Positions 2,401 to 30,727 of a DNA stretch of 64,000 bases are shown here, one piece after another. Position 1 is the stretch's first letter, and each line of letters opens with the position of its first letter. The position numbers and the translations under genes were made by a program. The stretch comes from Carpediemonas membranifera BICM (taxonomy: Eukaryota > Protista > Fornicata). The DNA is taken from contig JAHDYR010000011.1 of the NCBI GenBank assembly GCA_019828565.1, positions 1 to 64,000 of the forward strand. Reading direction: 5' to 3'. The notes under the pieces were generated by a model. That model was not told the DNA's origin and made no database searches. It saw only the letters and a list, made by a program, of their open reading frames with translations.

Positions 2401-3766
2401 GGTCTATAAATCTTCACCACATCTAATCGCTCCGGCGTCAAGTCATCGGGTATTCATCGTGCGGAAACTCCTCGGTATCGGTCAGCTCGACCAACCAAGA
2501 CGCGTCAGCGTGGCGCTCAAGATCGTGCTCAGCAAGATAGTCGCGCACACAACGGAGCGAGACCGGAGATCGGCGTTCAGCCAGACGATGCTGAGGCTGA
2601 GTAACCCTCATGCTGGAGTATGAGGCGAGGTCCAGGTCCACAGAAAAGATCGTTTGAGGAATTCATGACGGACAACACACGTCACGGTGTAGTAACGGTC
2701 CGGGTCCGAGACCTGAATAGGCTCCCAGTGGACCTCGTCACCGATCGCAGGCAGGTGACCCTCGCGACACAGCTCGTCGACCAGGGTCGCCCAGAAGGCG
2801 CTGGGAGCTGAGATGCAGCGGCTGATCCCGAAGAGTGCCACTCCGGGAAGCAATCGGGCGAGAGAAAGAAAGAAATTTACATGGTGCTTGGATTCTGACC
2901 CCGGACTGAGCTTGTTTCCCGTTGTCTTGGAGCTGAGTGCCCCGGGGTACTGCCTATTTCCCGTGGCAAACTGGTCAGCAGCGTTTGCCTTGGGCTTTCG
3001 GTGCTACTGTCTCCGCGGAAAGCCGATTCCAATCGCCCCAGAGGCCCTGCGGCCATCTCCGTGCAAATATGCTTTCCTGTCTCCCTGAAAGTCCGGCAAC
3101 TATCCGGGGAGCCTGGGGGTCTGTCCTCGGGGCATTGACAGGCAGGATCGTCCTGCAGGACCTTGACTATGACACTCCTTGCTTCCCTGCAGTCCTTGTA
3201 GAGCCGTTCAGCCACGGCACCCTCTCGTCTGTCCGGTTCCCCAATTCCATGCCCCCTCGACTCTGTTAAGAAGCCTACCCGAAGGCGGGGGAAAGTGACT
3301 AAGTCCATGCTGTCTACCCCGGTTAGGTGGCGTGGGTCAGCGGCAGCCCCAGGCACTAGGCCTGGTTGTCCTGTTACCCCTTACAACATTTCGCTTGCAC
3401 TACATGTCCTTGGTTTCCCATGTCGTTAACAAGGGCGGCAGGGGCACCTGTGCCCCTCCGACCCCCGTGGCCAGTCCCTGCAGTTTCCTTGGGGTCCCAA
3501 CGAGTGGTGCAACCATATGAATATGGATTTCCTTGACCTTATCCTTGCTCTGTCCTTGTTGCATGTCCTTTCTTTCCATAATTCTGGTCTGTCCTTCCCT
3601 GTTATTTCCTTGCAGTCGTTCCTTCCCTTGCTTTGGTTCCTGGCTACCGGGATACGTGGGGCCTTTCCTCACTGATCCCAGGAGCTTAGCACCAGCGAGG
3701 GTGGTCCATGGCTGATTCCTTGTCCATCCCTTCCCGGTCCTGGAGTCAGGGGTTCATGACATGCTT

Positions 3767-6700
3767 CTATTCCACCTTGAAGCTGTTGTAAACCTTTGCC
3801 AGTTCCCGTAGTCCTGCCGTGAGGCCTTCCCAAATGTCCTCCGAGCCCCATATTATTAGTTGCTGTAATTCTAGGATGGGTCTTTCCTGGTACCATTCGC
3901 CCTGGGGGCCCTGCCTTACTTCCAAGTCCTTAGTTTTGTGCTTCGCTGCTGTCCACAGCTTTGTCCAAGCTTCTCCCCTGTCTACTGCCGGGCATTCACA
4001 GATTATGTGCGCAGCCGATCCTAGCCTCTGGCCCTCTGCCCACTCCCTGATCATTTCCTGCTTCCTTGCTGGTCCTGGCTTTTCCCTAATGATCCTGTAG
4101 AACAGGCTCACCTCCGACTCCTCCGAGCATAGGGGGCATAGTCTGCTAATTTCTCTCTTCAGGTCAGCGCCTTGGGCCAGCTCTGTGATGGCTCTCATAG
4201 GGCCCTCCCCTCTCTCTGCCGACGATGGGGATGGGCTGACATTGGCTGCAATGGATACAATTCTCTTCCATTCCGCCCTGCTTTGCCCCTTCCCAGCCTT
4301 TCGGTCTACCGTAGGCTTACCTTGCAGACACTTGCTTAATTTCCTTGTCCCCATGATTTCCATTAGTCCTAGTGCCGTACGGCTTTTGCACCGCTTCATC
4401 CACCCCCTCCCTGATCGTTTCCATGCCATAATCCAGTAGCGCTGGTTTAGGGGCTCCCTCTCTGGTGCCCTCCAGTAGATGCTGCACTCTCTCCCCTAGC
4501 TTCCCACATAACCGTGCCCTCGCCCCCATTCTCTGTTTCTGACTGGTATATCCTGGTCCCTGTAGTTGACTATCCTTTTGACTGCCAGCCATTCCATGTG
4601 TGCCTGGAGGTCCACCCATCCATTCATCAGCCTCATGGCTGCGCCCCCTCCCGGTCCTGTTCCTGCCATGATTCCCTGCCAGTCATTCCAGATCCTTCTA
4701 CCTCCCGGTGCGTTCCCCCACACCTCGACTCCGAAGAGGATCCTGGGCCATATATATATTTCCAGTAGTAGCCTGCTCGCTAGTGCTGGCATGTTTGCCC
4801 TGGTCCACCCTGCCCATCTCACCAGTCTCTTGTACCTTTCGCTCTGCTCCTGTTTCCGCCTTATGCAGGCCGACATAGGGTCCTTCCCACTTGCGATCCA
4901 TAATCCCAGGTATCTCGCCTCCTTCTCTGGCAGTAGTGTTACCCCCTCGATCCTGACTAGGGCTGTTCTGTCCACGCTAATCATTACATTCTTCTGGGCG
5001 TTCACCCTCATTTCATGCTCTCTGATTATGTCCACCATTATGTTGGCGACCATCTGGCTATGCTCCGGTTTGCTCCCTGTGACCGCAGTGTCATCCACAA
5101 ACATGGTAAGTGCTGCCGGTAGTCGGTCGCTGAGGTGGCTCGTGGTCCTTGGCGGTTCTCTGATGTCGTACCGTTCTCCCTTGATTTTTCTTTTCTGGCC
5201 AGGTGGGGCCAGTTAGCCATGAACAGCACAAACAGTGTCGGTGCCAGGACGCACCCTTGCTTAACTCCCCTGTTGGTTCTTTCCCATGCCTTTGCCCCCT
5301 TGACTGATATCCAGGTTTCCTTTATTGTGCCTTGAATTGCCCTGATCAAGTGCTCCTCCACCCCCATACCCTGTAGCTTATCCATGAGAATGTCCCTTGG
5401 TACCGTGTCATATGCCTTCTCGATGTCCAGAAAGATTGACGTGGTCTCACCCCCTCCTGGTGCCGCTGCACAATGTACTGTATCTGCTGGATGACGTCCC
5501 TGTCTGACTGGAAACCAGCCTGTTCTCTTGGTATGAACCTTTTCGTTGCTGCTTCCAGACGTATCTTGAGCAATCTACCATAGACCCTGTACAGCAGTGG
5601 TGTCAAGGATATTGGTCTATATGATTCCGGCTTGACCCTTGGCTTCCCTGTCTTGTGTATGGCCGACACTGTGGCATACTTCCATGCTTTGGGTACGTCG
5701 CCCTCCCTGTAGACCCTGTTGATGAGCCTCGTCACTTCCCTAAGGCCTTTCTCATCCAGCTCTCTCAGCATGTCTCCAGATGTGAGGTCAGGCCCTGGTG
5801 CGGTGTCCCTCCTGATCCTTTTGATTGCGGCTTTGACCTCGCTTTCCTTGAACTCATTTCCGTCCCTGCCCCTCCATGTCTTCCAGGTGGGTTCCCTGCC
5901 TCTGCTGACTCTAGCATACTGTTGCAAGAGGATCTCGCTGATGGCCGCCTTGTCCGTGGTTATCACTCCGTCCTTGAGGAGGCTCTCCGGCATTCCCTTG
6001 TATTGGTTGTCACACCACCACCTTCTGATGGCAGCTTCCACTGAGGCCCTTGAGGCCCTATACCCCCTTTTTGCACTTCTGCTGATGTCGGCCACCCATT
6101 TGGCCCTGCGCTCTCCCCAGTATTTCTCCAGCTCCTCTTTCATCCTTTCCTTCCTGGTCCTGTTGCCTATTTCTGTCCATGGGGTTCGCTGGAGTTCGCT
6201 CCACACTCCGTTCCCGAACACTTTGTCCCTTGCCTTTGCTCCCCTGTTGTTCACTGGGTCGCCCATGCATGCTCTTATAGTCTCTTCCCATTGGTCCGAG
6301 CTCTTGATCCTGTTCAGCTTTGAGACTGTGACTGGCCCCTCCTTCTTTTTCATGGGCCAGGTGTGCACCTCGGGTATGGCCAGAGCCACGTCTCGCTCAC
6401 TTCTGCCATAGTACCGTTGTTCCTTCCATGCTAGTGTGATTCCATTGTGTGCTGAGCCCCATACCCCGACCTTCTGAGACTCTACCACCTCAATCTCCGC
6501 CCCCTGGATTCCTGGTGTTGTCACTGCAAAGTCCGGGGTTGATGTTCCTGATGTGAGCGTCCCAGACTTGGGTATGATGGCTTTGAGCCTGTGCTTCTCC
6601 ATCATATCCTTCCACCGGGTGGATCTTTCCATCTGGCCTGGGTCGATGTTCCAGTCTCCCATAATTATGGCCTCCATGCTCCCTTTCATGTCCATGATCT

Positions 6701-7215
6701 TCTGTATAGTGTCCCTGAATCCATCCTTCTCCTGCTTGCTGTGGCCGGATGGAGGGCCATACACGTTGATGACTAGTATGTCCCTGCCGGTTCTCATTAT
6801 GCTGGCTTGCACTCTTCCCGATAGGCTGTCCGTTATGCCGATGTCCCACTTTGCAGTTGCGTGTGGGCTCACTATCGTGCCGATGCCTTCCCTTGTTCCC
6901 TTCCATCTTGGCGCAGGTTCGTCATTGCCTGCTATGCCTAGTTGTCGGTTGATGCGGTGCTGACTTTTTGACATCCGCCTTTCGTTTTTCGTTGGCTAAG
7001 ACCAGGTCCTCTTCCGTCTCCCTCCCTGCTAGTGCGTAGTCAAGGTCCATGAAGCAATGAACCCTCGTATTCGCCGTTCTCCATGTCTCTTGTATGAGTA
7101 CTGCCTCTATGTCCTTCAACCTTAGCTGAATCGCCGTTGCCATAGACGCCGTGAAGTCCTTTCCTCTTCCTATGTGTCCCTCTGTGTTCAGACTAAGTAT
7201 CTTGTAGGTTACCAT
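3767..7215 (-). pseudogene. LINE ORF2 (apurinic endonuclease, reverse transcriptase, zinc knuckle), broken by ~4 frameshifts
   Basis: ORFs 7215-6922, 6974-5346, 5385-5038, 5104-4496 and 4429-3767 carry consecutive APE, RT and CCHC motifs. Confidence 0.9.
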
Positions 7216-7546
7216 TGCCTTTGTCCTGTTTCCTTATCCTGCGAATTCCCAGAATTTGGGAGCCCCAGCTTCCCGCTCCTCTCCTGCTATCCTTGTCCTA
7301 ACAAGGGGCCTAGATGCCGGTCTCGGTGACCCTTGTCAGGCCAACCTTGTTACCACCTGGTGACCTTCCATTCTTCGGGCAGGGTACTTAGGAGGGGGAC
7401 GATATGACGTGACCCCCCTTTGGCTGCCGCTACAGCCTACCGGCAGTGCATTTCAGCTAATGCCGGGCCCTGGGTGGGAGCCAGGGCTTGTGAATTATAA
7501 AGAAAATGTTGCTTGTTCCTTGAAAGAATACTGCTTTACCATGTCC

Positions 7547-10500
7547 TTACTCCTCCTCCGTGGACTCCCCACTGCTGCTGCAGCTGTCCTCGGCCTGACT
7601 CACTTGCTGTCCTTGTAGACTCTGCATTACCGTGATGAACTGGGTCATCAGGTCCATGGGTGAGATCTGCTTGGCCTTCTTAGCCTTCTTGTGCTTGTGC
7701 CGGGGGATCGTGGGCTTCTCCTTGCTGGGCTTAGTCGCGACGCCGGAGAGCACCAACCTTCCGTGGCCTTGCTCTTGCATGAGTCGGGCAGCCTTGAGCG
7801 CTGAGATCTCTTGTTGCGCCTCTGCCAACTGCTTTCGGAGCCGCAGCTTCTCCGAGTCCATGCCGGTTGCCTGTCTGCTTCCAGACTCCCAGTCCATGTC
7901 CTCTTCGTGCCTGCTTCTCTTTCCGCTGTCCGAGTCCATGGTCCTACTCGTGCTGCCCTCCTTGCGCTTGAGCGTCGTGGAGGAAGAGTGATCCTTGCTG
8001 TTGTCCATGCCTCCCTCTGAGCCTCTACCGGCCCAGGTGTTCCCGCTGAACGAGCCTCTCATCTGCGTTCCCGTGTTGTCCTGTCTCTCCCTGTCGTCTC
8101 CTCCGTGGTTACGATCCGAGGTCCTGTTCATGTTACCAGCTCTGTCGCCGGTTCTGTCGTCAGCTCTGACACCAGCTCTACCGCCGGCTCCGTGTCCTAC
8201 CCTTCTGTCCTCTTCCCTGTCTCCATGCTGGTCGTGATGTCCTTGATCCGCGTCCTGGCCGAAGTGCCTGCCCACCATCCTGGTGCTAATCCGCCTCGCC
8301 TTTTCCTCCAGGCCGTTGTCGAAGAACCTACTTTGGTATGGCTGTTCGGACTTTCCGTCGATGGTGGGGACATACGTGATGCCTGGGACATTGACTGTGT
8401 TGGCTCTGGGCTCGTCCTGGATAGCTGCCGAGACTAGTCTGGCCCCTTCCTTGCGCATGCGGCTTAGGATGGTCCCAGCCTCGCTGACCCTGACCATGCC
8501 CCAGTCTCTCGGGATGAAGCTCGCCCCTAGGGTGATCCTACCCCTGTTCCTGGGGGGCCTTGACGTTGACTATGACCTTCTCATAGTCCCTGAGGCTCTC
8601 TGCTAGGTCGTCGCAGCCCCAGACTCCTTGATGAGCCGTAGCCTCCTTCGAGGGCCACCACTCGTATAGCATGGCCATGGTTATGATGTCCTCCTCCCTT
8701 GCTGCCCCTAGGCCCTTCCTGACGCGTACCATGCGGAGCTGGTTAGCCGTGGCTCTTTCCATGATGGTCCATAGCGGGCTTCTCTCCAGTACACCTTCGT
8801 TGTCCATGATTGTGAGGGGGCCAGTAAGATGCCCTTCATGCCCAACAGAACCTCCCCGAACCCGAAGCCGATGCCGAAGCGGTGTCCGTTGTCCGGGACT
8901 ACGAGGATCCTGTCGCCGACTTCCCCTGCTGACGTCCCTTGCGTCCCCGATCGGGTACGTGCCGAAGATCTCAAAGGTGTCCCTCCTTGTCGCGAATTCC
9001 GGGCCTCCCATGATATCCATGCCCGGCTCCGCCTTCCCGACTGCTTCCATGGTCTTGTCGAGTGCCTTACCCATGTAGTGGTAGACGTCTGGGGTGCTCA
9101 TCCTCTCCCTTGCATAGGGCCCTGATCCTGGCTGTGAAGACTACTGTATCCGCCAACCCACAGTGGTAGCAACCCGCGGTGTGTCTGTGGTACGGACAGA
9201 CTCCCTTGGGCTCGCTCCTGTTCTGCCATCCATTTGACCATGTTGTTACTGCTTCCAGGTAGTTGGCCTTGTCGAGGTTGTCCCTGAGGTTTTGGCCAGC
9301 CTCCTCCTTGCCGTTGTTCTCCAGGATCTCTGGTAGCTTCTTCTCGTCCACCAGCCTAGCTTGGAAGAATTCCCTGGTTCCTTGCTCCAGTCCATTTGTG
9401 GGGTTCGTGAGGAGGAAGCTTTCCATCTCCACCCCCTTTGCATACATGATTATCTTCCAACCCTCCGACCTTTCGATCCTTGCCAGCTGAGCCGCCAGGC
9501 GGTTGGCCCAGTCCCTGAAAGTATGTATGTGCTTCTCATACTCGATCGGCGGCCGCCCCGTCCCGACCTCCACGAAGGTGGCCGGCGGCAGCCCCGTCAC
9601 TGCCCATGCCGTGTACCTCGCTTGGTCCATGCTTGCTGCCGGTATGTCCTGGTAATACAGGCCATGCCCGTGTCCAAGAATGTCCCCAGTGCTGAGGTCA
9701 AAGAGTACGATCCCGCCCTCAACCGGGATGGCAGGGATCCCTGCCTTCTTGACGCCAGGGTCTGCGCACTCGAAGTCGATGGCTCCGATCACCAGTCGTT
9801 TCTCCTTGTCCTTTCTAGGCATCCTCGGCGGCTGGCTGCTGACCTTGTTTGAGTCGACCTCCTCGTCCTGGTCGATCTTGCCTTGGTTGGCCCCGACCAT
9901 GTCCTTGTTCACTTCCAGGAGGCTGTCGTCGAGGCTTCTTCTGCCGGGCATGGTGGCCTGCTGGCGTCGTTCCTCCTTGTCCTTGACATGTTGCTCCTCG
10001 TCTCCGTCGATGACCGTGCTAGCGGACGACCTGTCCAGATCGGCATGTTCGTCCCTATTGCTGCGGACCGAGGTGGCCTTGAGCACTTCCAGCCTCACCT
10101 TCCGGAACGGCGGCTCGTTGCTAAGGGGGTCTCCTCCCCTTCGCCCAGGATATTGGTTCTGCCCTTCAGGTAGATCCCTGACTTGTTCCATGCTGCCTGC
10201 CATATGGCCGGGGCCTCCGGTGCCTGAAGCCTGAGGATGTCCCTAGCCTCCTCCATGAAGCGGCTGATGGACCATGCTGACGTGTCGCTTAGCTCTAGGA
10301 TGACCCTGTACTTGCCGTCCTCTTGCTCGTAGGCCACTCTGGTGACCGGGCCTTGGTTTGCCGGATCCCATACCTTGTCGTAAGGCACGCCTTCTACGGC
10401 CTCGTCTCCATGAGCCCCTGATACCAGTATGAACGACCCTTCGGCCTTCTTGACGCTGTCCCTGTCTACATCCCATTCGATGGGCCCATCTTCCTTCGGC

Positions 10501-11051
10501 TTGAGGATCGCCGTCTCGATGTCCTTCTCAGATGGCCATCTTGCCATGCCAGTGAAGCCCGCTTTCAGCGTCTTGGGCTCCAGTGCCTGTGCCATGTCCT
10601 TTGCTTCCTCGTCTCTGGGGTTGAGCGCCTCTGTGAGCATGTAGAAAAGGTCGCGGAGGCCGTGGATGCCGCATGGGTTCCTGAGGATGATGTCCTTGTT
10701 GTCAGTGACGCCGGTTGCGAAGAGGATGCGTCTGGCGTTCATGATTACTTCCTTGCGTCCTTTGGAGTTCGCATTGAGCGACTTTCCTGTGAACTTGCCT
10801 GTTCTACGAAGAAGTAGAGTCCTTGAATCGTTCCTTTCAGCGAGAAAGCTGTCCAGTAGTTCCCTGATGTCCTCCCACTGCTTCTGCGTGGAATCCCTGA
10901 TCCTTGTCGGTATTTCTACCTGCATTGTTGAGTGCAAAATTTCTCCCCTTTTCCTAGTCCATAAACTGGGTCGGAATTTTTGGGTCCGAAAGTCGGGCCA
11001 CATGTACATATCCGGGTGAGGTCTCCGTCCAGGCCTTCCAGTTTCTCCCAT
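7547..11051 (-). pseudogene. LINE ORF1 region, probably one long frameshifted ORF or several ORFs; includes a Maelstrom-like DEDD domain and a C-terminal coiled-coil/basic region
   Basis: Abutting or overlapping minus-strand ORFs 11051-10095, 10203-9067, 9101-8538 and 8497-7547, upstream of ORF2 and with the same purine-rich sense-strand composition; coiled-coil SEKLRLRKQLAEAQQEISALKAA. Confidence 0.65.
9067..10203 (-). CDS. Maelstrom/arenavirus-NP-like DEDDh 3'-5' exonuclease domain protein within the LINE
   Basis: Motifs AIDFEC, IPVEGGIVLFDLSTGDI, AVTGLP and CPYH-x6-HCGLADT; recognised by motif pattern only. Confidence 0.7.
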   Translation of the reverse strand: MAGSMEQVRDLPEGQNQYPGRRGGDPLSNEPPFRKVRLEVLKATSVRSNRDEHADLDRSSASTVIDGDEEQHVKDKEERRQQATMPGRRSLDDSLLEVNKDMVGANQGKIDQDEEVDSNKVSSQPPRMPRKDKEKRLVIGAIDFECADPGVKKAGIPAIPVEGGIVLFDLSTGDILGHGHGLYYQDIPAASMDQARYTAWAVTGLPPATFVEVGTGRPPIEYEKHIHTFRDWANRLAAQLARIERSEGWKIIMYAKGVEMESFLLTNPTNGLEQGTREFFQARLVDEKKLPEILENNGKEEAGQNLRDNLDKANYLEAVTTWSNGWQNRSEPKGVCPYHRHTAGCYHCGLADTVVFTARIRALCKGEDEHPRRLPLHG

Positions 11052-11667
11052 TGTCCATGCTCCGTACTATATAGGCCATTCTTTCAAAAAGGCGCGGTCC
11101 TAAAAATGCGTCGCCCTTTTCTGAGTAGCGGGGCCTTTCTGTGTAGTTGTTGTTGCTTTGTTCGTAGTCTCCTTTTAGCCTCTATCGACGGCCCCTGTTT
11201 CCCTTTTGTGCTGCCCTTCCTTCCTTGTGGTCTTGACAAAACCATGTAGCCGCCGGTGCTAGCACTGGCCCTCGACGGTTGTTTTCCTTTTCCTTGTAAA
11301 CATACGTTCCATGAAGACACTTTGATTCCTTGGTATGGGCGTGGAGCTCCCACTCGCGCCCAGCGGTATGCCCTGATAGCAACCCTTGAATGTTCAGACA
11401 GGAGGCCAAGGCCGCTCCTTCTGAGCTCCATGGGGCACTGCCCTATCCATATAGGCCAGGCCTGTTGGTCCTTGTCCATCCATGATCGAAGTGTTTCCAC
11501 TTTGCTGAAATCATTGGTGAACTGACCGTCGCTCCCCTGGGAGGTTTATACCGATGCGAGTGATTACGGGATTGCCCGGCTGCGCGAGTCTGCTGGTGCG
11601 ATCGACGAAGAATACATTCTGTTGGCTGCCTTACCCTGCCTTTTACAGGTACGTATAAGTGGTAGGC

Positions 11668-14600
11668 TTATGCTTTTCCGAGAAATATATCTAACGCTTC
11701 GCAGTCCTTGACGTTCTCGTAAGGCTCCCAAGTGTCCTCGCATGGCTCATACCCTTTCCAGTGCACGTGGAACTTCCTATTCTTGATCGACTTCTCATTG
11801 GATGAATCGTAAATGCACTCGACAACGTACTCGGCATCAGTGGTCGCTGCCAGGGCCTGTGCTGAGTCGCGTGACAAGTCACCCTCGAAAGACCTCACGC
11901 GCTCGGATGCTACCCTGAACTCCTTACCCGAGTTCACGTCTCTCACATTGTATGCTACCGGTAAGTTGTCGACGATAACCGGGCTCACTAGCTGCATTGG
12001 GCCTCGCCAACCTGCCGCAAGCTTGGAAGGTGGCTTAGTCGGATACTTCACCAGCACCCACTCTGAATCAATAACCGGCGGGGACCCAACCCGGTTGCGC
12101 GCGTCCTCTTGCATGGCTCGGATGCGTGCCGCGGCCATCTGTCTCGCGAGTTTCACCGCCTCGCCATTATCTGCCGGATAGTCCGCGCTGTCATCTTGGC
12201 TCGTGAAGACAATCTCACTCGGCACTCGCATGTCGCTTCCAAAGATAATCTCAGCCGGCGTGAGGTGATGGGCCGCTCTGGGTGTTGAATTAACAATAAA
12301 TTGTGCCACTGGTAAACAGTCGACCCAATCCTCGGTCTGGAGCTCATACTTCCTGGAGCGCAAGATTCGTTCGATTCGAGAGTTCGCCCGCTCTACAATC
12401 CCATTGGACTGCGGGTGATACGGAGTTGTGATATGGGTCGAGAACCCGACTCGACCAGCAAGATCCTCGAACAAACGGTTTGCAAACTGGCGCCCTCCGT
12501 CTGACTGGAGAACTCTAGGCGCCCCGTACCGTAGTAGCCACGTATTCGTAAATGCTCTTACTGCTTCAAGGGCCTTCGTAGTCCGTAGGGGTACCAGCTC
12601 TGTCCACCTTGAGGCCGTGTCAACCATTACCAAGATATAGCTGAAACCGTTGACCTCTGGTAGCGGGCCAATCGTGTCAATCGCTACCTTATCAAACGGA
12701 GTTACACTCGCTGTGTGCAAGTACGACCGCTTGGCGTCCTCTGGCTTCGCCGTGAGCTGACAGACTGGGCACTTGTTAATTACCTCTGCGACTTGGTCAA
12801 TGGGGGCTCGCTTCCCTCTCGCCTTCAACAGCTCGACTGTCGTATAAAGGGGGAGATGGGCTTGACCGTGGAGGTGAGCGTCATGGATCTCATTCTCTGT
12901 CGCGGTCGGGGTCTTGGACGCAGCAAAGACTCTGCTCAATCCATCCGCTGCTCCATTATCTACTCCAGGGACGTGTCGTATTGTGAAGGGGAGGTCTGCG
13001 ATCGATTCATACCACCTTTGGACCTTAGCGTTTGATGAACGGGCCATATAAATGAGATTACGGTGGTCGGTCAGCAGCGTGAAAGGGGTCCAGACCAGGA
13101 AACGGCGCCAGCGTTGAAGCGCAGAGACGATAGCATATGCCTCCTGTTCTATCGTGCTCCATCTTGTCTGTACATCTGTGAACGCCTTCGACATATAACT
13201 GACCGGCTTTCCATCCTGCAGGAGGACACCTCCGATCCCTACGTCCGACGCGTCGGTCATCACCACGTGGCGCTTTGTCACGTCGAAGTGTTGTAAGATG
13301 GGTGCGGAACACAGTAGATCCTTCACCAGGGCCAAGGCTTTGGTCTGCTCTGGGGTGCCTAGCCCAATCTTACCGGCTGCCGCGAGTGCCAATGGTCGCG
13401 TGACCATGGAAAAGTGTGGCACGAAGTCACGGACGAAGTTCAGAAATCCCATGAGTGCCTGGGCCGCCTTTCGGGACTTGGGTAGTTTGAGCTCTTGGAT
13501 GTCATGTACCCGGTCGGCAGCAATACCGTAGCCCTCACCTGAAACTGTCCAGCCAAGGAACTCGACTGTAGACTGGCCGAAATGTGACTTCTCGGCATTG
13601 AGGCGAAGATTCAGTTCATCCGCTCGCTTGAGGACCTTCGTCAGGTTGACGATATACTCTGCCTCTGTTCTTCCGAAGACTACGATGTCATCGATATAAA
13701 TCAGGCAACTGGCTCCTAGTAAATCTGCGAACGCCCGCTCCATCGAGTACTGAAAGTGAGCACCCGCGTTCTTCAAACCAAACGGCATGCCCGTATACTG
13801 GAACTTGCCCCTCGGCGTATTGAACGCCGTGTACTGGCGCGAACGTTCGGACATCTGAATCTGGTGGTACCCTGCCGATAAATCTAGGGTGGCGAACACC
13901 TTGGATGCGCCTAACTTCGCTAAACACGTCTGTATCTCCGGGATAGGGTACTCGAACGGCTCCGTCTCGTCGTTGATCTTACGGAAATCTACGACCATGC
14001 GTGTCTTGTCCGGACCCTTCGGAACCAGGAGCACCGGCGAAGCATATGGGCTGAAAGACTGCTCGACGTACTTCTTCTCGATTAGCTCGGCGAGATGTTG
14101 GTCGAATAAGTGCTCGCGCTGGTATGGGACGTAGTTAGACCGTGACGCGATCACCCTGTCCGACTTGAGCACAAGGTCATATGGTTCTAGATTGCTGAAA
14201 CCTTGCCGGTCGTGGAAACAGTGGTCATAGCGGGCCAATATCCGACTCTGCTTATCGTTCATATCCGCTCGCAAACTGTAGAGTCGTCTCTCAAGACGCT
14301 CGAGTGTCGATGGGAGCTGGGCGTCCTCTTCGATCGACGAGTCGCTCGACCTAGCTCCAACATGTGGAAGAATGCCCCAGTCCACCATGACTGCATAGTT
14401 CAAGAGCATGTCATACTCCATCTCAACTGCATACGCGGTCACCGTCGCCTCGACGCCCTTCGGGGTCATCGGCGACTTGTCCATGATTACTGGGACCTCA
14501 TAGGTCGTGTCTGTCTGGATTCTGCCTCCGGGTGACTTGATGTGTATCGGGCTGGCTAGCTTCGTCGCGTTCAGTCCCGCTTCCTGAGCTGAGGCGGGGT

Positions 14601-15657
14601 TAACGAGCGGGATGTCCGCACCACAATCGAATAGTATGCGTCCCCATGCGCAGCCGTCCACTGCACCCGATACCACAGGCAATGATGGAGTTGTCTCGCC
14701 AGCCATAGTCCAAACGCGCGCCGGTGTCGAGTAATTGGTGTACTTACGGTCGTTTACAGGAACTGGGCCTGTCGACCGGCAGAACTTGGCCATGTGGCCC
14801 AGCTTTCCACACTTTGCGCACTTGATCTTATCTCTCTTACAGTCCCGGGCGAAGTGACCTTGCTTGCCGCAGTTCTGACACTGCTTACTGGCTCTGTCGG
14901 GCCGTCTCGTATCAGGCTGGAAACTGGAGTGGTTGTACGCGTGCGGTGGCTCAGGAGCTTGGCGTTGGAGGGGAGGCTGGTCAGGTCTTGCCTGTTGACG
15001 TTCTTGGCGGCCCGGACGGGCTCTGCTAGACTTGACGCGGCTTCCAGGATGTGTTAACGACACTGGATGGAGGGATGCGTATGATTCAGAGATGAGACGA
15101 GCTTCCTCGAGCTTCTTGCAGATCATAAGAGAGGTAATGAAGGTCTCATCGAGCGACATTCCTACTACGGCGTCTTTGACCTCCTCGCGGAGGAACTCGT
15201 CCAGGATTCCGTTCAGGAACATCTGGCGGATCGTAGCAGGCGCCAGATCAGGCTTGATGATGCGGTACCTTGTACGGAACTTGTCCAAGTACTGTGTGAA
15301 GCGCCCCGAATGGACGCCCTTCACAGAGAGCTGGAATAGTTGGCGCTGTAGGATAGCTGATTGAGGTTTGATGGCGTCAACGACGGCCTGGAAAGCTAGG
15401 TCTTCCGCTCCGGACTTTTTCATACGGACTTGCGGTGCGCGAAAAATAAGGGAGGATGATGTCTTCTGTCTCCTCGCGCGGCGGTACACCTGCTTAACAT
15501 CAACACCCGATGAACTGCAGAATGTTAGAACTGCAGGGCCTAAGCGCTTAATGAGGCGGCGCTTTCCACCGGCCTGAACATGTCTCGTTAGCTTTTCGTG
15601 AAATGCCAGAATGGCACTAATGCTTGGCTCGTTCACTGACGGGCCGTTTTCAGTCAT
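11668..15657 (-). CDS. Intact Ty3/Gypsy chromovirus Gag-Pol polyprotein (element A)
   Basis: Single 1329-aa ORF with two CCHC knuckles (CQNCGKQGHFARDC, CAKCGKLGHMAKFC), protease FDCGA, RT YIDD, RNase H TDAS...TDHRNL, integrase CPVC / D,D35E (QSDGG, HPQSNGIVER) and chromodomain FHVHWKGYEPCEDTWEP. Confidence 0.97.
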   Translation of the reverse strand: MTENGPSVNEPSISAILAFHEKLTRHVQAGGKRRLIKRLGPAVLTFCSSSGVDVKQVYRRARRQKTSSSLIFRAPQVRMKKSGAEDLAFQAVVDAIKPQSAILQRQLFQLSVKGVHSGRFTQYLDKFRTRYRIIKPDLAPATIRQMFLNGILDEFLREEVKDAVVGMSLDETFITSLMICKKLEEARLISESYASLHPVSLTHPGSRVKSSRARPGRQERQQARPDQPPLQRQAPEPPHAYNHSSFQPDTRRPDRASKQCQNCGKQGHFARDCKRDKIKCAKCGKLGHMAKFCRSTGPVPVNDRKYTNYSTPARVWTMAGETTPSLPVVSGAVDGCAWGRILFDCGADIPLVNPASAQEAGLNATKLASPIHIKSPGGRIQTDTTYEVPVIMDKSPMTPKGVEATVTAYAVEMEYDMLLNYAVMVDWGILPHVGARSSDSSIEEDAQLPSTLERLERRLYSLRADMNDKQSRILARYDHCFHDRQGFSNLEPYDLVLKSDRVIASRSNYVPYQREHLFDQHLAELIEKKYVEQSFSPYASPVLLVPKGPDKTRMVVDFRKINDETEPFEYPIPEIQTCLAKLGASKVFATLDLSAGYHQIQMSERSRQYTAFNTPRGKFQYTGMPFGLKNAGAHFQYSMERAFADLLGASCLIYIDDIVVFGRTEAEYIVNLTKVLKRADELNLRLNAEKSHFGQSTVEFLGWTVSGEGYGIAADRVHDIQELKLPKSRKAAQALMGFLNFVRDFVPHFSMVTRPLALAAAGKIGLGTPEQTKALALVKDLLCSAPILQHFDVTKRHVVMTDASDVGIGGVLLQDGKPVSYMSKAFTDVQTRWSTIEQEAYAIVSALQRWRRFLVWTPFTLLTDHRNLIYMARSSNAKVQRWYESIADLPFTIRHVPGVDNGAADGLSRVFAASKTPTATENEIHDAHLHGQAHLPLYTTVELLKARGKRAPIDQVAEVINKCPVCQLTAKPEDAKRSYLHTASVTPFDKVAIDTIGPLPEVNGFSYILVMVDTASRWTELVPLRTTKALEAVRAFTNTWLLRYGAPRVLQSDGGRQFANRLFEDLAGRVGFSTHITTPYHPQSNGIVERANSRIERILRSRKYELQTEDWVDCLPVAQFIVNSTPRAAHHLTPAEIIFGSDMRVPSEIVFTSQDDSADYPADNGEAVKLARQMAAARIRAMQEDARNRVGSPPVIDSEWVLVKYPTKPPSKLAAGWRGPMQLVSPVIVDNLPVAYNVRDVNSGKEFRVASERVRSFEGDLSRDSAQALAATTDAEYVVECIYDSSNEKSIKNRKFHVHWKGYEPCEDTWEPYENVKDCEALDIFLGKA

Positions 15658-15661
15658 TTGA

Positions 15662-15673
15662 AGTAATATTACT
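15662..15673 (-). promoter_or_regulatory. Palindrome AGTAATATTACT at the PBS position of element A
   Basis: Minus strand reads CCACA GTAATATTAC TTCAA ATG, i.e. an LTR-like end, the palindrome, then the gag start. Confidence 0.7.
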
Positions 15674-15707
15674 GTGGTTTGACTATACCTGTTTTACTGG
15701 GAGAATA

Positions 15708-17231: not shown

Positions 17232-17326
17232 TAAAGCAGTGCACCCTTCACAAGGGGGTTGCCGTCCCGGACACCGGACCACGCATGTCCGAGTAGCTGG
17301 CTCTGGCCATACCAGCAATTCGATCA

Positions 17327-20300
17327 AAGAATAGGAATGTTGCCTATACGCGCACAGGAGGCGGAACCCTGGCCTCCTGATGTTCCAGGACTCTCTGGAG
17401 AAGCCAATTCTGTACGTTTTTCCCTCCTTAGACAGCTCATTGCCGCCGTAGTATCGAAACATGAACAGCGCGTACCAAGAGGCAAGAAACAATACGTGAA
17501 CAACTGTAAGACCTTCTTTTACACGGTAACAAGCATCCCCACGCTAAGATCCATCACATGTGTTTCTGGCCCAACCATAACCGTTCGCTTTTGGTGCGAC
17601 CTCATTTCGGAGTTCGCCATCCTGTTGCATTGCCACTACAACACTTCCAGCATCAAAAAACATGCCAAGAACATTGATACTGCATGCCCACTCATCCACG
17701 CTGTCTTCAAGCAGCTCTTCGTCGATCGCGTCGACATCATCGACGCATTTGATCCCGACACACTTGACTTTGTCGTCGATGATGCCCCCTCCACCACGCA
17801 ACTACCGTCCCCTGAGATCCAACCGCCCAGCAGTCCTGTCCCCATGCTCTCGCCTGCCCCAACATCTCAACCGAGCATCGCAACCCCTGCGCCGCACCTT
17901 GCTGTCCTCCATAACGCCACGACCGACCGTCCCACGCATTCCCACGGTCCTCTTAGTGCCAAAGAAGCCCTGGCTGTTGGCAAACGCAAACCTGCTAAGC
18001 AGGCTCAAGTACGTTTTGCCGATGAGTTTATCGCCCTTCTCAACAGCTACAACGATTCCGAAGAGGACTGCCGAGCAGGTAAGCTGCAAATGATCCTCAG
18101 CTACACACTGACGCTGCACACTCCTACTGCCACCAAAATGCCAACAACAGCAGCCGTTTCCGCGTCCAAGCAGGCCCTCATCATGTGCCAGCGCGGTTTC
18201 TACGCAAAGGCCCTGCAGTGCCTTACCGCCACGCGCGTAGCGCTTGCCGATGACGAAATCGACGCCGCGTTCGCCCGCCTCCTCCCCGTGCCCGCCACCC
18301 CGCTCCACCCTCTGACCGACATTGGTGCGTCACCGACGACGCCCCTGCGCCACATCGAGGTGTCCGCCAACGCCATCAGCACAGTTATCCACCGCACCCG
18401 CTTCGACTCAGCGCCCGGGCCCTCTGGTCTCTCCTTCCTACACCTTAAGACAATGCTGCGCGCCCGCGGCAAGCTCTCCGGATCCCTTGTCCCCCTAATC
18501 CAAGATATTGTCAACGGCGAGCCTTGGACGGCCGCCCTCGCCCACGCCATACTTGTCCCCGTGCCCAAGAATTCCGCAACAGACATCCGCCCCATCGCGA
18601 TTGGCGAGTCCCTCCGCCGCATCGCTGGCCGCATACTTGCCAAGGCCGTCCGCGACCGCCTGGTGAAGGACAAGATTTTCGTTGACCAATATGGCCTCGG
18701 TGAGAAATGTGGCGCCGAGCTCATGATCGCCAAAATGCGCGCCCTCCGCGCCAAAGGACAAACAATCGCTGCCTTTGACCTCACCAACGCATACGGCACG
18801 GTTTCGCGCCCCTATCTCCTCAGAGTTGTTGAAGAATATGCCCCTGTTGCCTCTGGCTATCTCCACACCATGTACGAGAATGGTAACCTACACGCCACCA
18901 CTGGAAGCACCTTCTCCTCCGACGAAGGCATCCAACAAGGCTGTCCCGTCTCTCCACTCGCCTTCTCACTGGCCATGATGCCGATCCTGGCCCAACTACG
19001 CCGTAAGTTCCCTCCCATCACCTGGCTCGCCTACCAGGACGACCTATACGCAATAGGCACCGATTTACCAAGCACTCTGGAGCCCGCTGTTGCCACCGCG
19101 GTCGCAGCAGCGGGAATGACCCTGAACAGCGCCAAGACCATCTGGTCTGGCCCCAGCGAAGACGCCTACCCACTCAAGATCCCCCTGGGTGCAGACAGCT
19201 TCATCCAGGCCAAGTGGCAGGTCCTAGCCAGCAAGGTCAGCAACCGCCTTGCCGCCCTTGATGCCTGGCTGGATGCTGAAGGCCCAAACTCCGCACCATA
19301 CGGCTTTATCATCCTCCGCACGTGTATTCTGCCCATGCTGAACCACTTCATGCGGGCTGTTCCGCCCTCCCATGCCCATCTAGCCGACACTTTCGAGACC
19401 AACCACATATGGCCCACCCTGTCTCGCATCATCGCCGCCCCGGACGAGGCCAGAGCGCACGTCATGTGGCGCGCCGGCCTCGACAGTCACGCAGGCCTCG
19501 GCCTCGCACTCCCAAGCGCAGTATGGCACTCCGCCTACCTCGGCAGCTGCGCTTGCAGACCAAACTGCCAATGAGATAGACCCCTCCGCCTTCGCTGTCC
19601 AGTGCAAGGACTGGCCCAAATCAGTCAAAGAGGTCAAGGACAAGCCCAACCCCCAGCACTACTTAACCAAACTTCTGCGGCAGCAAGCCGCGGCTCAGCT
19701 GGGGGAGCAGCCACTCCCCGACCTTCACCCCCTCATCTTCACGATCCCCTACCCCCTCCATGCCGATGCGGAAGCCGAACTCCCACCTGGTGCCACCTTC
19801 CAGGCCCTTGCCAAGCGCCAGGTCGGCCTGCCTGCCTTCAACACCGGCGACCTGCCCCAATGCCCCATGTGTAGCAAGCCCCACCCTGATACTGAGCATC
19901 TGCTCGGCTGCCAGAACCTCCCGAACGGTCTCCGCAAGCGCCGCCACGACGACATGCGCGATGCCGCTCTCACCCTCCTCCGCCGCGAAGGCGTCCCCGT
20001 CCACAAAGAGCAAAACCTCCGGCTCTTCCCGGCTGTCGAGCTTGTCGACGCACCCATCAACCCGAACGCCGATATCCCTGCCGACCTGCTCATCACCCCG
20101 CCAAACGCCATGCCCACCGTCGTCGACCTGCGCGTCACCAACTACCGGTCGAGTGCGTACTCGGACAAGACACGCCATTACCGTGACTACCGCGTGACGG
20201 TCCTCCCAGCCATCTCGTCAATCTACGGCGAGACGGCCGTTACGAAGACCAGCGGCGCGAAGAAGGAGCGCCCCTGCTGGATCGCATCGCTCGCCGGCAT

Positions 20301-20564
20301 CTGCGGCCTGTCCGAAGGCGCGACCGCCACCCTTCGCCGCGATGTCGCCCTCGCCCACTGGAACGGCAACGTTGCAGTCTGGGCCTCGATTCCCTTCCCA
20401 CGCTCATAACCGACACTGGCTCCAACTCCGATCGGGTTTCACACTGCACCACCCAGCCACACACTGCCCGCGCCCAAGCCCGCCACACACGCGTCACCTG
20501 ACGCCGAGAGTGGTTCCGAATTCTCGCGCCAGGGCGCTCGGATTCTCCCCCACCGTCCCATGTA
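17327..20564 (+). mobile_element. CRE-like RLE non-LTR retrotransposon inserted at the 5' end of tRNA-Asp; ORF from ATG 17337 with ~2 frameshifts near 19560-19800
   Basis: RT motifs SAPGPSG, IRPIAIGE, FDLTNAY, GIQQGCPVSP, YQDD, GLGL; C-terminal CPMC...EHLLGC, RHD and ADLL...VDLRV. Flanked by the direct repeat AATTCGATCA (17317-17326, 20565-20574). Confidence 0.9.
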
Positions 20565-20662: not shown

Positions 20663-23600
20663 GCTAGCTCTCCTAGCCGCCAGCTAGCTGTCCTAGCCTC
20701 TAGACATACTTGCTCTACCCAACGGGGATATCCCACCGGCAACGAGCATAGTGGAATGGCTTGCAGGCACGCTTGCGAGCCCAAACCGACCGTCTCCTCG
20801 AGAGACCGCGTCAAAGAATGTCTGTTGTGGCTTACATCTGCCGTTGTAACGCGTGTCAGCCCCACCCTACCTAGCTCTCCCAGCCACTAGCTCCCGTCAG
20901 AGATTTAAAGTGGTGGTTGGAGAAGGATGGAGGCCAGGTGTCCCTGGACCCCCGGGTGTGTGCGGACCCCGTTGCCCATATATCTCAGCATGCTTTTCGT
21001 GGAGGCCCACGTCCCCATGGACAGGAGGACTTCGGTACTCGTGTGGGCTACCGCCAACTCCGTGGTGGCGCCCTTGCGGAATGAGTGCCACGAAATGTCG
21101 GTGCCGTACGCCTGGTGGATCCAGTGGCGAAGGGTTGACGCCGGTAGCGGCTTCGATAGTGAAATACCACCGGTTGAGGTGATCGCCCGCCAGATGAGGT
21201 CGTCGTCGCGGCGCGTTGCCGTGGGGACCCATGCCTTCAGGGCCCTTGCTGGGTTAAAGCGGGCCCACGATTGGTTTGGTACCAGCTTGCGGACGCCTGT
21301 GGCAGTCTTAGTTCTCGCGAACAGAAGGAGGGCATTGCCATCAGCGTCGAACTCGACGTCTCTTCGTCTGAGCCCAAAGATCTCTGCGCCTCTACTCACG
21401 GTGATAAAGCAGAGAGCAGAAAAGAGGGCGGCCTGGAAGGCTTGGGGTGACTTCCGATGTCTGTCTATGACCTTGCGGACTCTCGCGGACGTGACAGGCT
21501 TCGCACCCCCGGTCAGGCCTTCTACAGAGGCGACGTTCCGGGCGGCGGCGATTATCTGCTTGGCAGCGGTCGGGGGGCGCCAGTCAGACACGAGTGGGGC
21601 GGCCTCGCAAATCCAGTAGCCTTTCCTGTGTATCGACTGTGGGCCCGACGTGGTACCCTCGGTCAGAAGGAACTCTTTGAGCTGTTGCGCGTGTGAGTGG
21701 CTCGCGTTGCGGGATTGGAGGAATTTGGCGACCCAGCCCGCTGCTGTGCGGCGCGACGATTCGTTTCTGAAATGTGATAGTCGGTCGTCAGCGAGGAGGG
21801 CTTGGAACGGGTCCTCAGGATAAGCGCCACGAAGCGGATCTTGCCCTTGTCTGTCGCTGTCCAGGCTAGCTCGGACTGCAGGAGGTGTTTCGCCTGGACT
21901 CTGAGGTACAACTTGAGGGGTGTCAAACGTTTGATGGCTCGGACCTCGGGCGAGTTGAGGTCCGGGCACAGGACTATCGCCGCTGATCTCCAGTGTCGAG
22001 GGTTCCCAGTCTGGGTCGAGGCGCGTATTGTCTGGAGGCGACGACACGTCACTCCAAGAAGGGCTATAGGAGGAGCTATATAAATCCTGACTCCCCTCCA
22101 GTCCATCTGGAAGCCGTTGTCGTGGATTGACCAGGCTATTTCTGCAAAGCCTGGTAAGGCCAGAACCTTGTCGGGGCGTGCTGTGACGTCGATCTCGACC
22201 GGCCCCCACTTGCGCATGATGGTTTCCAAGACTTCTCGGGGTGACGACCAGTCGAGCTTGGCGAACCTGGAGAGCCTGTCCGCCTGGACATTCAGGTGTC
22301 CGGCAATATGGAAGCAGTGGACGTCGAGGCGCTTGGTTTCTGCCGTGTTGTAGATGTCCTGTAGGATCTGGTGTGCGGCTGGGGGAGGTTCGGCGATCCC
22401 CGTCTGTTTACCCAGCTGATGGCAGCTGAGTTGTCGGCAAAGACTGTGAGAGAGGAGCGTGACTCCTGCTGGGGCACGAGATTGATCGCCTGAGCGATCG
22501 CGAAGAGCTCCTTGACGCCAATGTGTTCCCCCTTGAGATGAGGGGGGGAAGGCACCCTGTGATGCCGCTCCCTTCTCCCCATTGAACAGGCATGCTCCCC
22601 AGCCGGACGTTGATGCGTCTGAGGTGACAGAAATCTGGAGCGTATCGCGTATTTCCCAGTCCGCTCTTGCTTCGGCGAACCTCTTGGGTGGGCGATCGCG
22701 GAGGAGGACTTGCCACGCCGCCAGCTGCCTGCGGATTTGGCTGGAGAGGTGGACGGTCTCCGTCGTAGGGGTGGCCTGCAGTGGTCTGAGTGCGAGGCGG
22801 GCGAACTGTGTGGTCCCTGCGAAGAATGACAGACGGCCTAGGAGCTTCTGCCAGTCTGAAGCTGTGATGGACCCGACCCGGAGGGCCTTGGAGATCGTGG
22901 CCGTGTAGGCCTCGGCCTTGTCTTTTGAGATTCTTAGGGACTCGCTTGCGGTGTCTATGTGGACACCTAGGTAGTCTACCTGCTAGGTCGGCGTGAGGAC
23001 GCACTTGTTGAGGCCCGGTATCGCCCCCAGCGATAGCATGAGGTCGATGATCTGCGGGGTGACCGAAGCTAGGTACGATGGGGAGGCATGGGACACTAAG
23101 AAGTCGTCGAGATAGACCGCGATGGTCACCCCGAACCTGTGTGCGATGATCTTTGCAAGCTGTATGGTCGTGCTCTGGAACACGTACGGCGCCGCTGTCC
23201 ATCCGAAGCCGAGTGTGTTGTACCTGAATGCGCGGCCGTCCGGTAGGACCACGCCTAGGAGGGGGGAGTCTCGCGAGGCGACGCCAAGTTGGTGGTATCC
23301 CGATGCTAGGTCTATCTTGATCATGTAGTCGTTCTTGTGCAGATTGCGGACCGCCCGTCTGATGCCGAACAGACGAAACACCCTCAGCTCTGCTGTCAAC
23401 TCGTTCAGGGCTCGGAGGTCGTGCACGGGGCGGACATCGTCTTTGCCCTTCGACACCGCGAACAGGGGTGCGCTGTGACGCAGTTCGTCTATCGGGCACG
23501 GGGAGAGGACGCCCTTGGCGACTAGCTCTTCGATCTTCGGGAGTAGGCGGGGGTCCACTCGCCTTTGCGGTTCTGGTGGAGGGGGCGCAGAGGTGAGGTG

Positions 23601-24386
23601 GATAGGGACGCCATCCCGCAGCCAGCTTACTACCTCGGGGGAGGCACCGAGTCTTGCCCACACCGGCCACTTTTTGTTCATTGACGGGAACTGAACATCT
23701 GTGGCAAGGGCTACTTCTTGTGCTTCTTGTGAAACCCCCCTTTGTTCTGGGGCTGGTCCTTTCTCTTACCCTTGGCTCTGGCTTTGGCTGCGCAGTAGGA
23801 GATGGCACGGGGGTTTTGGTCTGGGACGTGTTGAACAAGTCGAGAAACAGTTCGCAGGTTGCGTCCGACCAGTTGTCGTCCTTGAGGTCCAGAAGGGTAC
23901 GGCGTGCTTGGAGTTCCACCAGGAGTCTTGCTTTGAGCGGCTCGTCGTCGAGGGCGTTGACGATCACCATCACGCGGCGAAGCCACTTTGCTTCCGCCTT
24001 AAGTGGTCTCTTTGTCGGAAGCTCGCCGTATGCATCCATCTCTGCCAGTGTTTGGTCAATATCCGCTTCATCTTGTTCAGGGAAGAAATCAATTTGAGAT
24101 TCCTTCGGCGGCTCGGTCTCGGGCGGCGGAGGAGGCGGATTAAGCTTTGCAAGCTGTTGCGAGATGGTAGCGATTGAGGCTTCTAGGTTATTGAGCCTCG
24201 TTGCCGTCGGATCTGGATGTTCCGAATTTTCTACCATTCTGCCCGCATAAACTGCGCGGCTCGCCTGGTCGGCGCATCACCATGCCGGAGCGAGGCGATC
24301 TCATTGCCCTCCGCTCACGGCCCGTTACCCGAGGTAACCTGTCAGCGCGATGTAACGCCAGGCTAGCTATCCTAGCCTCATGACAT
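20663..24386 (-). mobile_element. Tyrosine-recombinase retrotransposon (DIRS/PAT-like) with short split direct repeats
   Basis: Gag-like ORF from 24237; RT (IDLASGYHQ, FGW, YLDD) with a premature stop at 22983; RNase H (SDAST, KEL, DNS); Dam-like methylase (IDVTA...DW...YIAPP); YR ORF. Repeats A1 24356-24386 / A2 20678-20707 and B1 20871-20885 / B2 20664-20678. Confidence 0.92.
20905..22209 (-). CDS. Tyrosine recombinase of the DIRS/PAT-like element (start uncertain)
   Basis: Catalytic motifs SRGAEI, RTKT, HSFRKG, GTW, RYMG. Confidence 0.9.
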   Translation of the reverse strand: MGAGRDRRHSTPRQGSGLTRLCRNSLVNPRQRLPDGLEGSQDLYSSSYSPSWSDVSSPPDNTRLDPDWEPSTLEISGDSPVPGPQLARGPSHQTFDTPQVVPQSPGETPPAVRASLDSDRQGQDPLRGAYPEDPFQALLADDRLSHFRNESSRRTAAGWVAKFLQSRNASHSHAQQLKEFLLTEGTTSGPQSIHRKGYWICEAAPLVSDWRPPTAAKQIIAAARNVASVEGLTGGAKPVTSARVRKVIDRHRKSPQAFQAALFSALCFITVSRGAEIFGLRRRDVEFDADGNALLLFARTKTATGVRKLVPNQSWARFNPARALKAWVPTATRRDDDLIWRAITSTGGISLSKPLPASTLRHWIHQAYGTDISWHSFRKGATTELAVAHTSTEVLLSMGTWASTKSMLRYMGNGVRTHPGVQGHLASILLQPPL

Positions 24387-25019: not shown

Positions 25020-25298
25020 CTATTGAAGTAGTCGCTCGGTGGTGCGACGAACAAAGGTTACATCTGTCCTTATCGCCTGTCCGATGTAAGCGCGGAGACT
25101 CCGGACCTCCCGCCATGTCCCCATGGCAAGAAGAGCCACAAGGGGTGTACCAGAGACTGCAAGCTCGGACGCAGCGCCCTTTCGAAAGGAGTGCCATCCT
25201 GACCCTCGACCAAAGACCTGCTGAACATCGCGGAGTAGTCCCGTGGCAGAGCGCTCGCGCTTCCTGCTGTACGCTCGGCTGCTAATCACCTCTCTCCA
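25020..25298 (-). pseudogene. C-terminal tyrosine recombinase fragment of a further YR element
   Basis: GWHSFRKGAASELAVSGTPLVALLAMGTW...RAYIG. Confidence 0.85.
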
Positions 25299-30710: not shown

Positions 30711-30727
30711 ATTAACGGAACATCACG

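Follow-up and report, generated by a model that had tools for sequence, protein, structure and literature searches.

Nucleases that combine a DEDDh fold with a Glu-Cys-His-Cys (ECHC) zinc tetrad are represented by Maelstrom (Mael or MAEL) and the arenavirus nucleoprotein (NP), the only two carriers named in the accessible text of a review of such enzymes, which also states that ECHC is present in the arenaviral exonuclease and that this enzyme suppresses innate sensing (PMC7968707). The MAEL of Entamoeba, which has both the DEDD and the ECHC residues, is described as an active exoribonuclease that degrades single-stranded RNA (ssRNA) (PMC4408791). Mobile elements have been reported to carry related or analogous passengers: DEDDy exonucleases occur in long terminal repeat (LTR) retrotransposons of bdelloids and in Athena/Terminon elements, with a Cys-His-Cys motif in two (PMC5408684; PMC6431247), an SGNH esterase is found in the first open reading frame (ORF1) of long interspersed nuclear elements (LINEs) of the CR1, L2 and RTEX groups (PMC5408684), and the P and piggyBac DNA transposons carry a DEDDh accessory nuclease (PMC3627910). 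On the host side, vertebrate DEDDh enzymes restrict LINEs (PMC10123124), and telomeric LINEs of Drosophila capture short fragments of PIWI-interacting RNA genes which act as counter-defence RNA decoys and not as working enzymes (PMC13534243; PMC7785250). Here we describe a LINE of the APE type, some 8.7 kb long, located on the minus strand of a 64,000-nucleotide stretch (hereafter the window) of the fornicate protist Carpediemonas membranifera BICM (contig JAHDYR010000011.1 of assembly GCA_019828565.1, positions 1 to 64,000), whose ORF1 includes a DEDDh-fold nuclease domain with a predicted zinc tetrad that resembles that of Maelstrom. The domain is real and conserved, and apparently undescribed in the setting of a LINE ORF1. 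Our literature search, with Repbase entries, subscription journals and supplements outside its scope, found no account of a LINE whose ORF1 has a DEDDh or Maelstrom-like domain, and a preprint on retrotransposon methyltransferases does not mention exonucleases in its accessible text (10.64898/2026.05.21.726589).

A preliminary description of this DNA, made by reading the sequence alone, had noted four motifs in the ORF1 region of the LINE, namely IDFEC, PVEGGIVLFDLSTG, AVTGLP and CPYH...HCGLAD. All four lie in a single frame (9810-9070, minus strand) and the placement in the ORF1 region is correct; the gap between CPYH and HCGLAD, given as six residues, counts as seven, and the frame 10242-9067 covers no more than the middle of ORF1, which is frameshifted and begins at 10925 on the minus strand. 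With residues numbered along protein P0001, whose start lies at 9810 on the minus strand, the predicted catalytic set (D12, E14, E130, H216 and D221) is complete and so is the predicted zinc tetrad (E31, C205, H208 and C217). The DxE and H...D residues that had been proposed as retained are indeed present as D12/E14 and H216/D221 and are conserved in homologues, and the proposed E-C-H-C zinc site shows the spacing of Maelstrom. The zinc ligands of Bombyx MAEL are E137 on strand 2, C290, H293 and C302, with R306 at the position of the last Asp (PMC4408791); the x2/x8/x3 spacing of C205/H208/C217/D221 is identical to this and the glutamate lies on strand 2 in both proteins. Across all six frames of the window the pattern C-x2-H-x7-H-C-x3-D has a single occurrence, against none in 30 base shuffles. 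A Maelstrom-type zinc site in the ORF1 domain is probable. The MAEL signature EHHCHC contains two further conserved histidines (PMC2628886), and a comparison among homologues within the LINE family showed no invariant histidine between E31 and C205.

The AlphaFold model of the domain, based on a 13-sequence alignment, had a mean predicted local distance difference test score (pLDDT) of 78 and a predicted template modelling score of 0.77, with residues 69-83 poorly resolved and residues 201-220 at pLDDT 61-63. With Foldseek there were 65 matches in the PDB at E<=0.001 (best E 2e-5, probability 1.0); the 32 matches listed are all DEDD-type exonuclease folds led by ERI1, and among them Drosophila Mael (4ybg) has the highest query TM-score (0.52) and Bombyx MAEL is also present. 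In the wide VIA search three MAEL chains scored Z 11.1-11.3 with 184-194 aligned residues, the longest alignments among the 50 matches listed (no other exceeded 182 residues), while the DinG exonuclease scored Z 12.2, ERI1 Z 11.8, Lassa NP Z 9.0 and the NP of lymphocytic choriomeningitis virus (LCMV) Z 8.8. A second structural search was in agreement, and overall the DEDDh matches reached Z 11-12.5 with root mean square deviations of 3.4-4.3 over 154-194 residues. As structural matches no more than 1 Z unit apart were treated as ties, there is certainty about the fold class but not about the family. The likeness to Maelstrom and arenavirus NP that had been suggested is thus borne out at the level of the DEDDh fold, for which DEDD and Maelstrom structural matches were found, and not as a specific kinship with Maelstrom, given the ties with other DEDDh enzymes and the lack of a sequence match; arenavirus NP is likewise a structural match, and a weaker one (Z 9.0 and 8.8, compared with 11.1-11.8 for Maelstrom). 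In view of the failed sequence-level test and the tied structural ranking, we classify the domain as Maelstrom-like and not as a member of the Maelstrom family itself.

The closest proteins are hypothetical proteins of C. membranifera, one of which is 98-99% identical. Thirteen of the 14 matches obtained with HMMER at E<=0.001 are real homologues; P0015, a Micromonospora repeat protein (E 4e-4), was discarded as a chance match. Together with cluster members and two further matches, 20 proteins cover the domain wholly or partly, P0021 being left out as it ends before the nuclease domain. The family includes 14 C. membranifera gene models on nine contigs that differ in length (P0021 counted), and its proteins together cover the window between 10925 and about 7590. 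Among the homologues covering each site D12 is kept in 13 of 14, E14 in 14 of 14, E31 in 14 of 15 and E130 in 15 of 16 (P0016, whose start is non-homologous, was left out of the D12 and E14 counts, and P0002 is cut short); C205, H208, C217 and D221 are kept in all 14 homologues which have the C-terminal motif, and H216 in 13 of them. A comparison of seven diverged full domains, pairwise 22-69% identical, shows 27 invariant positions out of 230, including eight of the nine key residues.

The nuclease domain is in frame inside the ORF1 of P0004, P0018, P0022, P0005, P0006, P0008 and P0011. Two contigs of another assembly, L001 and L002, carry the same ORF1: L001 has an unbroken ORF1 of 1129 amino acids with all nine key residues, L002 has one frameshift, at a run of C within the nuclease domain, and in both an APE ORF2 starts 300-400 bases past ORF1. 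Between these two loci the ratio of nonsynonymous to synonymous substitution rates (dN/dS) is about 0.26 in the nuclease domain and 0.32-0.36 in the rest of ORF1, values which come from one pair with dS near 1 and whose contrast is small. A nuclease tree of 12 rows and a tree of the following ORF1 domain with 10 rows are unrooted and carry a long-branch warning; in each, the proteins named as C. membranifera fall apart from the rest and P0008 pairs with P0011. The main splits are shared, which agrees with inheritance of the domain within ORF1. The expectations of a domain present in ORF1 of many copies and under purifying selection were thus supported, and family members keep the segment, so that an unrelated insertion is not indicated. 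We consider it almost certain that the DEDDh domain is integral to ORF1. A coiled coil is predicted near the end of ORF1, where matches to coiled-coil profiles are weak. The model of the domain downstream of the nuclease, made from P0007 (mean pLDDT 48.5), gave no fold match at E<=0.001 and is uninformative about its fold. P0007, a piece of LINE ORF1, is labelled 'Splicing factor U2AF' by its source and was probably misannotated through an Arg/Asp-rich region. No loci of P0001 were found in metagenome or viral contigs.

Set beside the described systems, the LINE domain shares with protist MAEL (Entamoeba EHI_192630) and animal Maelstrom the DEDDh fold, the ECHC tetrad and the C-terminal spacing seen in Bombyx, and with protist MAEL also the retention of catalytic residues; it differs from Maelstrom in being encoded by a retrotransposon and not by the host, in having Glu at Exo II, and in that neither an HMG box nor a sequence-level match was detected. 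Arenavirus NP (Lassa, LCMV) likewise joins a DEDDh and ECHC nuclease to a protein which is expected to cover the RNA of the element, although the LINE domain matches it less well than Maelstrom and no similarity to the NP core domain was detected with Pfam. The bdelloid DEDDy ORF3 of Juno/Vesta and Athena/Terminon is also a retroelement 3'-5' exonuclease with intact residues, and also of DEED type (PMC5408684); it is, however, RNase D-like, forms a separate ORF and belongs to LTR or Penelope-like hosts, whereas the LINE domain is DEDDh and fused inside ORF1. The SGNH esterase is a captured enzyme at the same ORF1 position of APE LINEs and a lipid-related hydrolase, where the domain described here is a predicted nuclease. 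P and piggyBac elements are DNA transposons, and the accessible text makes no mention of a zinc tetrad for their nucleases (PMC3627910).

Taken as a whole, the explanation we favour, with a probability of roughly 0.45, is a Maelstrom-type RNA exonuclease which protects the LINE from silencing. The ORF1 nuclease would be an active, zinc-stabilised 3'-5' RNA exonuclease, in which D12, E14, E130 and D221 would hold two metal ions, H216 would serve as the general base, and E31, C205, H208 and C217 would bind zinc. The ORF1 protein would multimerise by its C-terminal coiled coil and coat the LINE RNA; the nuclease would be carried along with the LINE ribonucleoprotein, as the exonuclease of the arenavirus nucleoprotein is, and would degrade double-stranded or small RNA that would otherwise trigger silencing, leaving the element protected. 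Conservation of the catalytic residue set argues for an active two-metal exonuclease, and catalytic activity is on this basis probable. LINE ORF1 proteins coat their own RNA, and an unrestricted ssRNA nuclease would therefore be harmful, so that the enzyme is likely to be selective. Counter-silencing as the main role is a tentative proposal, with odds somewhat below even. Less likely is the further proposal that an active ancestral Maelstrom, which is a host anti-transposon factor, was taken over by the LINE and converted to a silencing suppressor joined to an RNA-coating protein, the LINE thereby arriving independently at the arenavirus design.

Several observations weigh against the favoured explanation, in addition to the single-pair basis of the dN/dS values given above. 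The Exo II acid is Glu, where Asp is usual. P0004 has Y in place of D12, P0009 has L in place of H216, and P0012 is without the C-terminal motif. DinG, ERI1, Orn and RNase T equal or exceed Maelstrom in the structural searches (Z 11.3-12.5). The neighbours in the ESM Atlas are unnamed prokaryotic, giant-virus exonuclease and RNase T/Rv2179c-like clusters, with no Maelstrom cluster among the matches listed and a weak arenavirus row (0.92, 140 shared features, rank 14). Searches of Pfam, PHROGs, NCBIfam and PDB sequences gave no nuclease match, and no Maelstrom profile or sequence match was seen in Pfam at E<=1 or among PDB sequences at E<=10. Linkage to APE was observed directly at three loci only (the window, L001 and L002), and the literature search gave no paper on RNA interference in the host.

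An active nuclease could instead serve replication, either by trimming the 3' end of the LINE RNA to (UUUC)n or by removing RNA/DNA flaps in target-primed reverse transcription, and an equivalent role has been proposed for the rotifer DEDDy ORFs (PMC5408684). The full LINE (end at 2863) and a 5'-truncated copy of the same family at 34954-35185 have the identical terminal base at the (TTTC)n tail, a short repeat without poly(A) in both; the Pfam scan detected no RNase H family in ORF2; and the 3'-end trimmers ERI1 and RNase T are among the top structural neighbours. Many LINE clades, however, have short-repeat ends and no RNase H yet do without such a domain, and an enzyme of the integration step would be expected more simply in ORF2. 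We regard replication or 3'-end processing as possible and nearly as likely as counter-silencing, and pure RNA binding as less likely.

Of similarly doubtful standing is an alternative that concerns origin, and which is therefore compatible with a role in either counter-silencing or replication: the domain may be a generic DEDDh exonuclease from a prokaryote or giant virus, its zinc-site likeness being convergent or coming from an unnamed wider family. The structural tie with many DEDDh families is in keeping with this, as are the top Atlas matches of P0001 (scores 0.94-0.95, 229-248 amino acids), which are bacterial (136 members), archaeal (455) and a Nucleocytoviricota exonuclease cluster (65), and a viral fold search that returned phage and giant-virus exonucleases with a Catovirus exonuclease in second place (TM 0.51/0.56). 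Convergence or a wider family has to be set against the exact agreement with Bombyx Mael in C/H/C/D spacing and strand-2 Glu, the naming of Mael and arenavirus NP alone as ECHC carriers in the accessible text of the review, and the fact that the longest structural alignments among the matches listed are those to Mael.

Considerably less probable is a module that binds RNA without catalysis, like animal Maelstrom, and takes the place of the RRM or zinc knuckle usual in ORF1 proteins. No RRM or CCHC family match was found with Pfam in any ORF1 homologue, P0004 and P0009 each miss one catalytic residue, and animal MAEL binds ssRNA without catalysis; yet animal Mael lost its catalytic residues on becoming a binder (PMC4408791), whereas all five catalytic positions are intact in six of the seven diverged full domains. 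That one decayed LINE copy has merely received a host gene fragment or an unrelated insertion, as the roughly ten frameshifts of the window copy and its position amid a nested retroelement cluster might suggest, is extremely improbable and already contradicted by the L001 and L002 loci and by the family homologues. Seven of these have the domain in frame within ORF1, the nuclease and next-domain trees share their main splits, and the four pieces of ORF2 are rejoined through short-read indels.

A published draft genome of C. membranifera, which may differ from the assembly of the window, was made from Nanopore and Illumina reads (PMC8516963). ORF1 has about five one-base frameshifts (near 10120, 9110, 8923, 8830 and 8545) and ORF2 is broken at 6965, 5449, 5189/5191 and near 4497; the breaks that were inspected sit in or beside homopolymer runs. 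Short-read contigs of one study (X1) differ from the window by single bases at 6965, 5449, 5191, 5189 and 8923. Four of these indels, in ORF2, rejoin its pieces as one frame of 911 residues, and the difference at 8923 shifts ORF1 into the frame used by homologues; the remaining frameshifts lie outside the coverage of the X1 contigs. The break near 10120 is read through by the homologue P0002. Homopolymer position, short-read differences and this read-through make it likely that the frameshifts are assembly errors; otherwise, intact sister copies exist. An X1 contig matches window 9213-9380 exactly, and a contig of another study (X2) matches 9650-9800 with no mismatch, so that motif I does not depend on this single assembly. 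One X1 contig, about eight times as deeply covered as the others, is a relative, 80% identical, of the reverse transcriptase (RT) at window 5191-5420; its differences are mostly three bases apart and point to a more abundant sister LINE family.

Table 1. Features of the LINE and of its ORF1 nuclease domain, in window coordinates.
Feature	Position	Strand	Remarks
LINE 5' region	10926..11667	-	5' end within the range from ~11525 to where the adjacent gypsy ORF stops
ORF1, ~1,100 amino acids	7547..10925	-	Homologues tiling the window
ORF1 layout			N-terminal domain, acidic/low-complexity linker, nuclease, conserved downstream domain, disordered region, predicted coiled coil
DEDDh-fold nuclease domain with Maelstrom-type zinc tetrad (probable), within ORF1	9106..9801	-	
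Exo I, D12-x-E14	9769..9777	-	On model strand 5-17
E31, predicted zinc ligand, strand 2	9718..9720	-	Putative equivalent of Bombyx Mael E137
E130, predicted Exo II acid, helix after strand 118-124	9421..9423	-	Presumed assignment, from position
C205-x2-H208-x7-H216-C217-x3-D221	9148..9198	-	Predicted zinc ligands C205/H208/C217 interleaved with Exo III H216-x4-D221
Inter-ORF spacer, ~330 bases	7216..7546	-	
ORF2: APE endonuclease, RT, C-terminal Cys/His motif	3767..7215	-	
3' untranslated region, short (TTTC)n at its end, no poly(A)	2863..3766	-	
5'-truncated copy of the same LINE family	34954..35185	-	235 bases, 91% identical

The assignment of the element (Table 1) to the LINEs is supported by a defined 3' tail, 5'-truncated copies and the lack of an LTR. 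Downstream of ORF1 on the minus strand the Pfam scan identified APE (PF14529, E 1.2e-6) and RT (PF00078, E 8.5e-14), and the top match of ORF2 among PDB sequences is LINE-1 ORF2p (E 2.8e-11). No convincing target-site duplication was seen at the ends of the LINE, of which the 5' end is placed only to a range. Just past the ORF1 stop an intron-like GGTAAAG followed by a pyrimidine tract is present in the three inter-ORF spacers (window 7216-7546, L001 5231-5600, L002 4633-5000). The spacer of the window has a folding z of -1.93; a shared RNA structure in the three spacers was unsupported, the consensus fold having a positive covariation term, and an Rfam scan gave chance-level rows only. The LINE 5' region contains a basic open frame of 153 codons (11084-11545, minus strand) with no Pfam match and no clear counterpart in L001 or L002.

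The LINE 5' region adjoins a gypsy/chromovirus element with an unbroken polyprotein of 1341 amino acids (11668-15693, minus strand) in which Pfam identifies zinc knuckle, protease, RT, RNase H, integrase and chromodomain; no 3' LTR of this element was seen at the junction with the LINE. Three further non-LTR elements on the plus strand (17235-20409, 30716-34285 and 25239-27091) are apparently of the restriction-like-endonuclease type by motif reading. The first has a Pfam RT match. The second is an unbroken ORF of 1189 amino acids, and 25299-27091 repeats it at 99.5% identity but with an internal deletion. At 20905-24276 (minus strand) and 26896-30139 (plus strand) a reading of the overlapping ORFs suggests two DIRS-like tyrosine-recombinase retrotransposons, and a gypsy-like element at 35281-39105 (plus strand) has identical direct repeats of 119 bases at its ends, unusually short for LTRs. 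The retroelement cluster is followed by what appear from their ORFs to be host genes (41789-62878), including a membrane protein of 1905 codons, a WD40 protein resembling Cdc20, and a protein of 1048 codons with internal repeats and a signal-peptide-like start.

The nuclease described here joins a short list of enzymes in LINE ORF1 proteins, and provides a third setting for the DEDDh and ECHC fold beside Maelstrom and the arenavirus nucleoprotein. As the domain is invisible to Pfam and its proteins are annotated as hypothetical, similar cases may have been missed elsewhere. With 230 residues and all of the predicted catalytic residues it should be easy to express, and it allows a direct test of the target of the ancestral active MAEL nuclease, and of the existence of RNA-silencing suppressor proteins encoded by retrotransposons. 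If the capture of an active ancestral Maelstrom were true, the DEDDh and ECHC nuclease family would have in mobile elements a reservoir and perhaps also a source.

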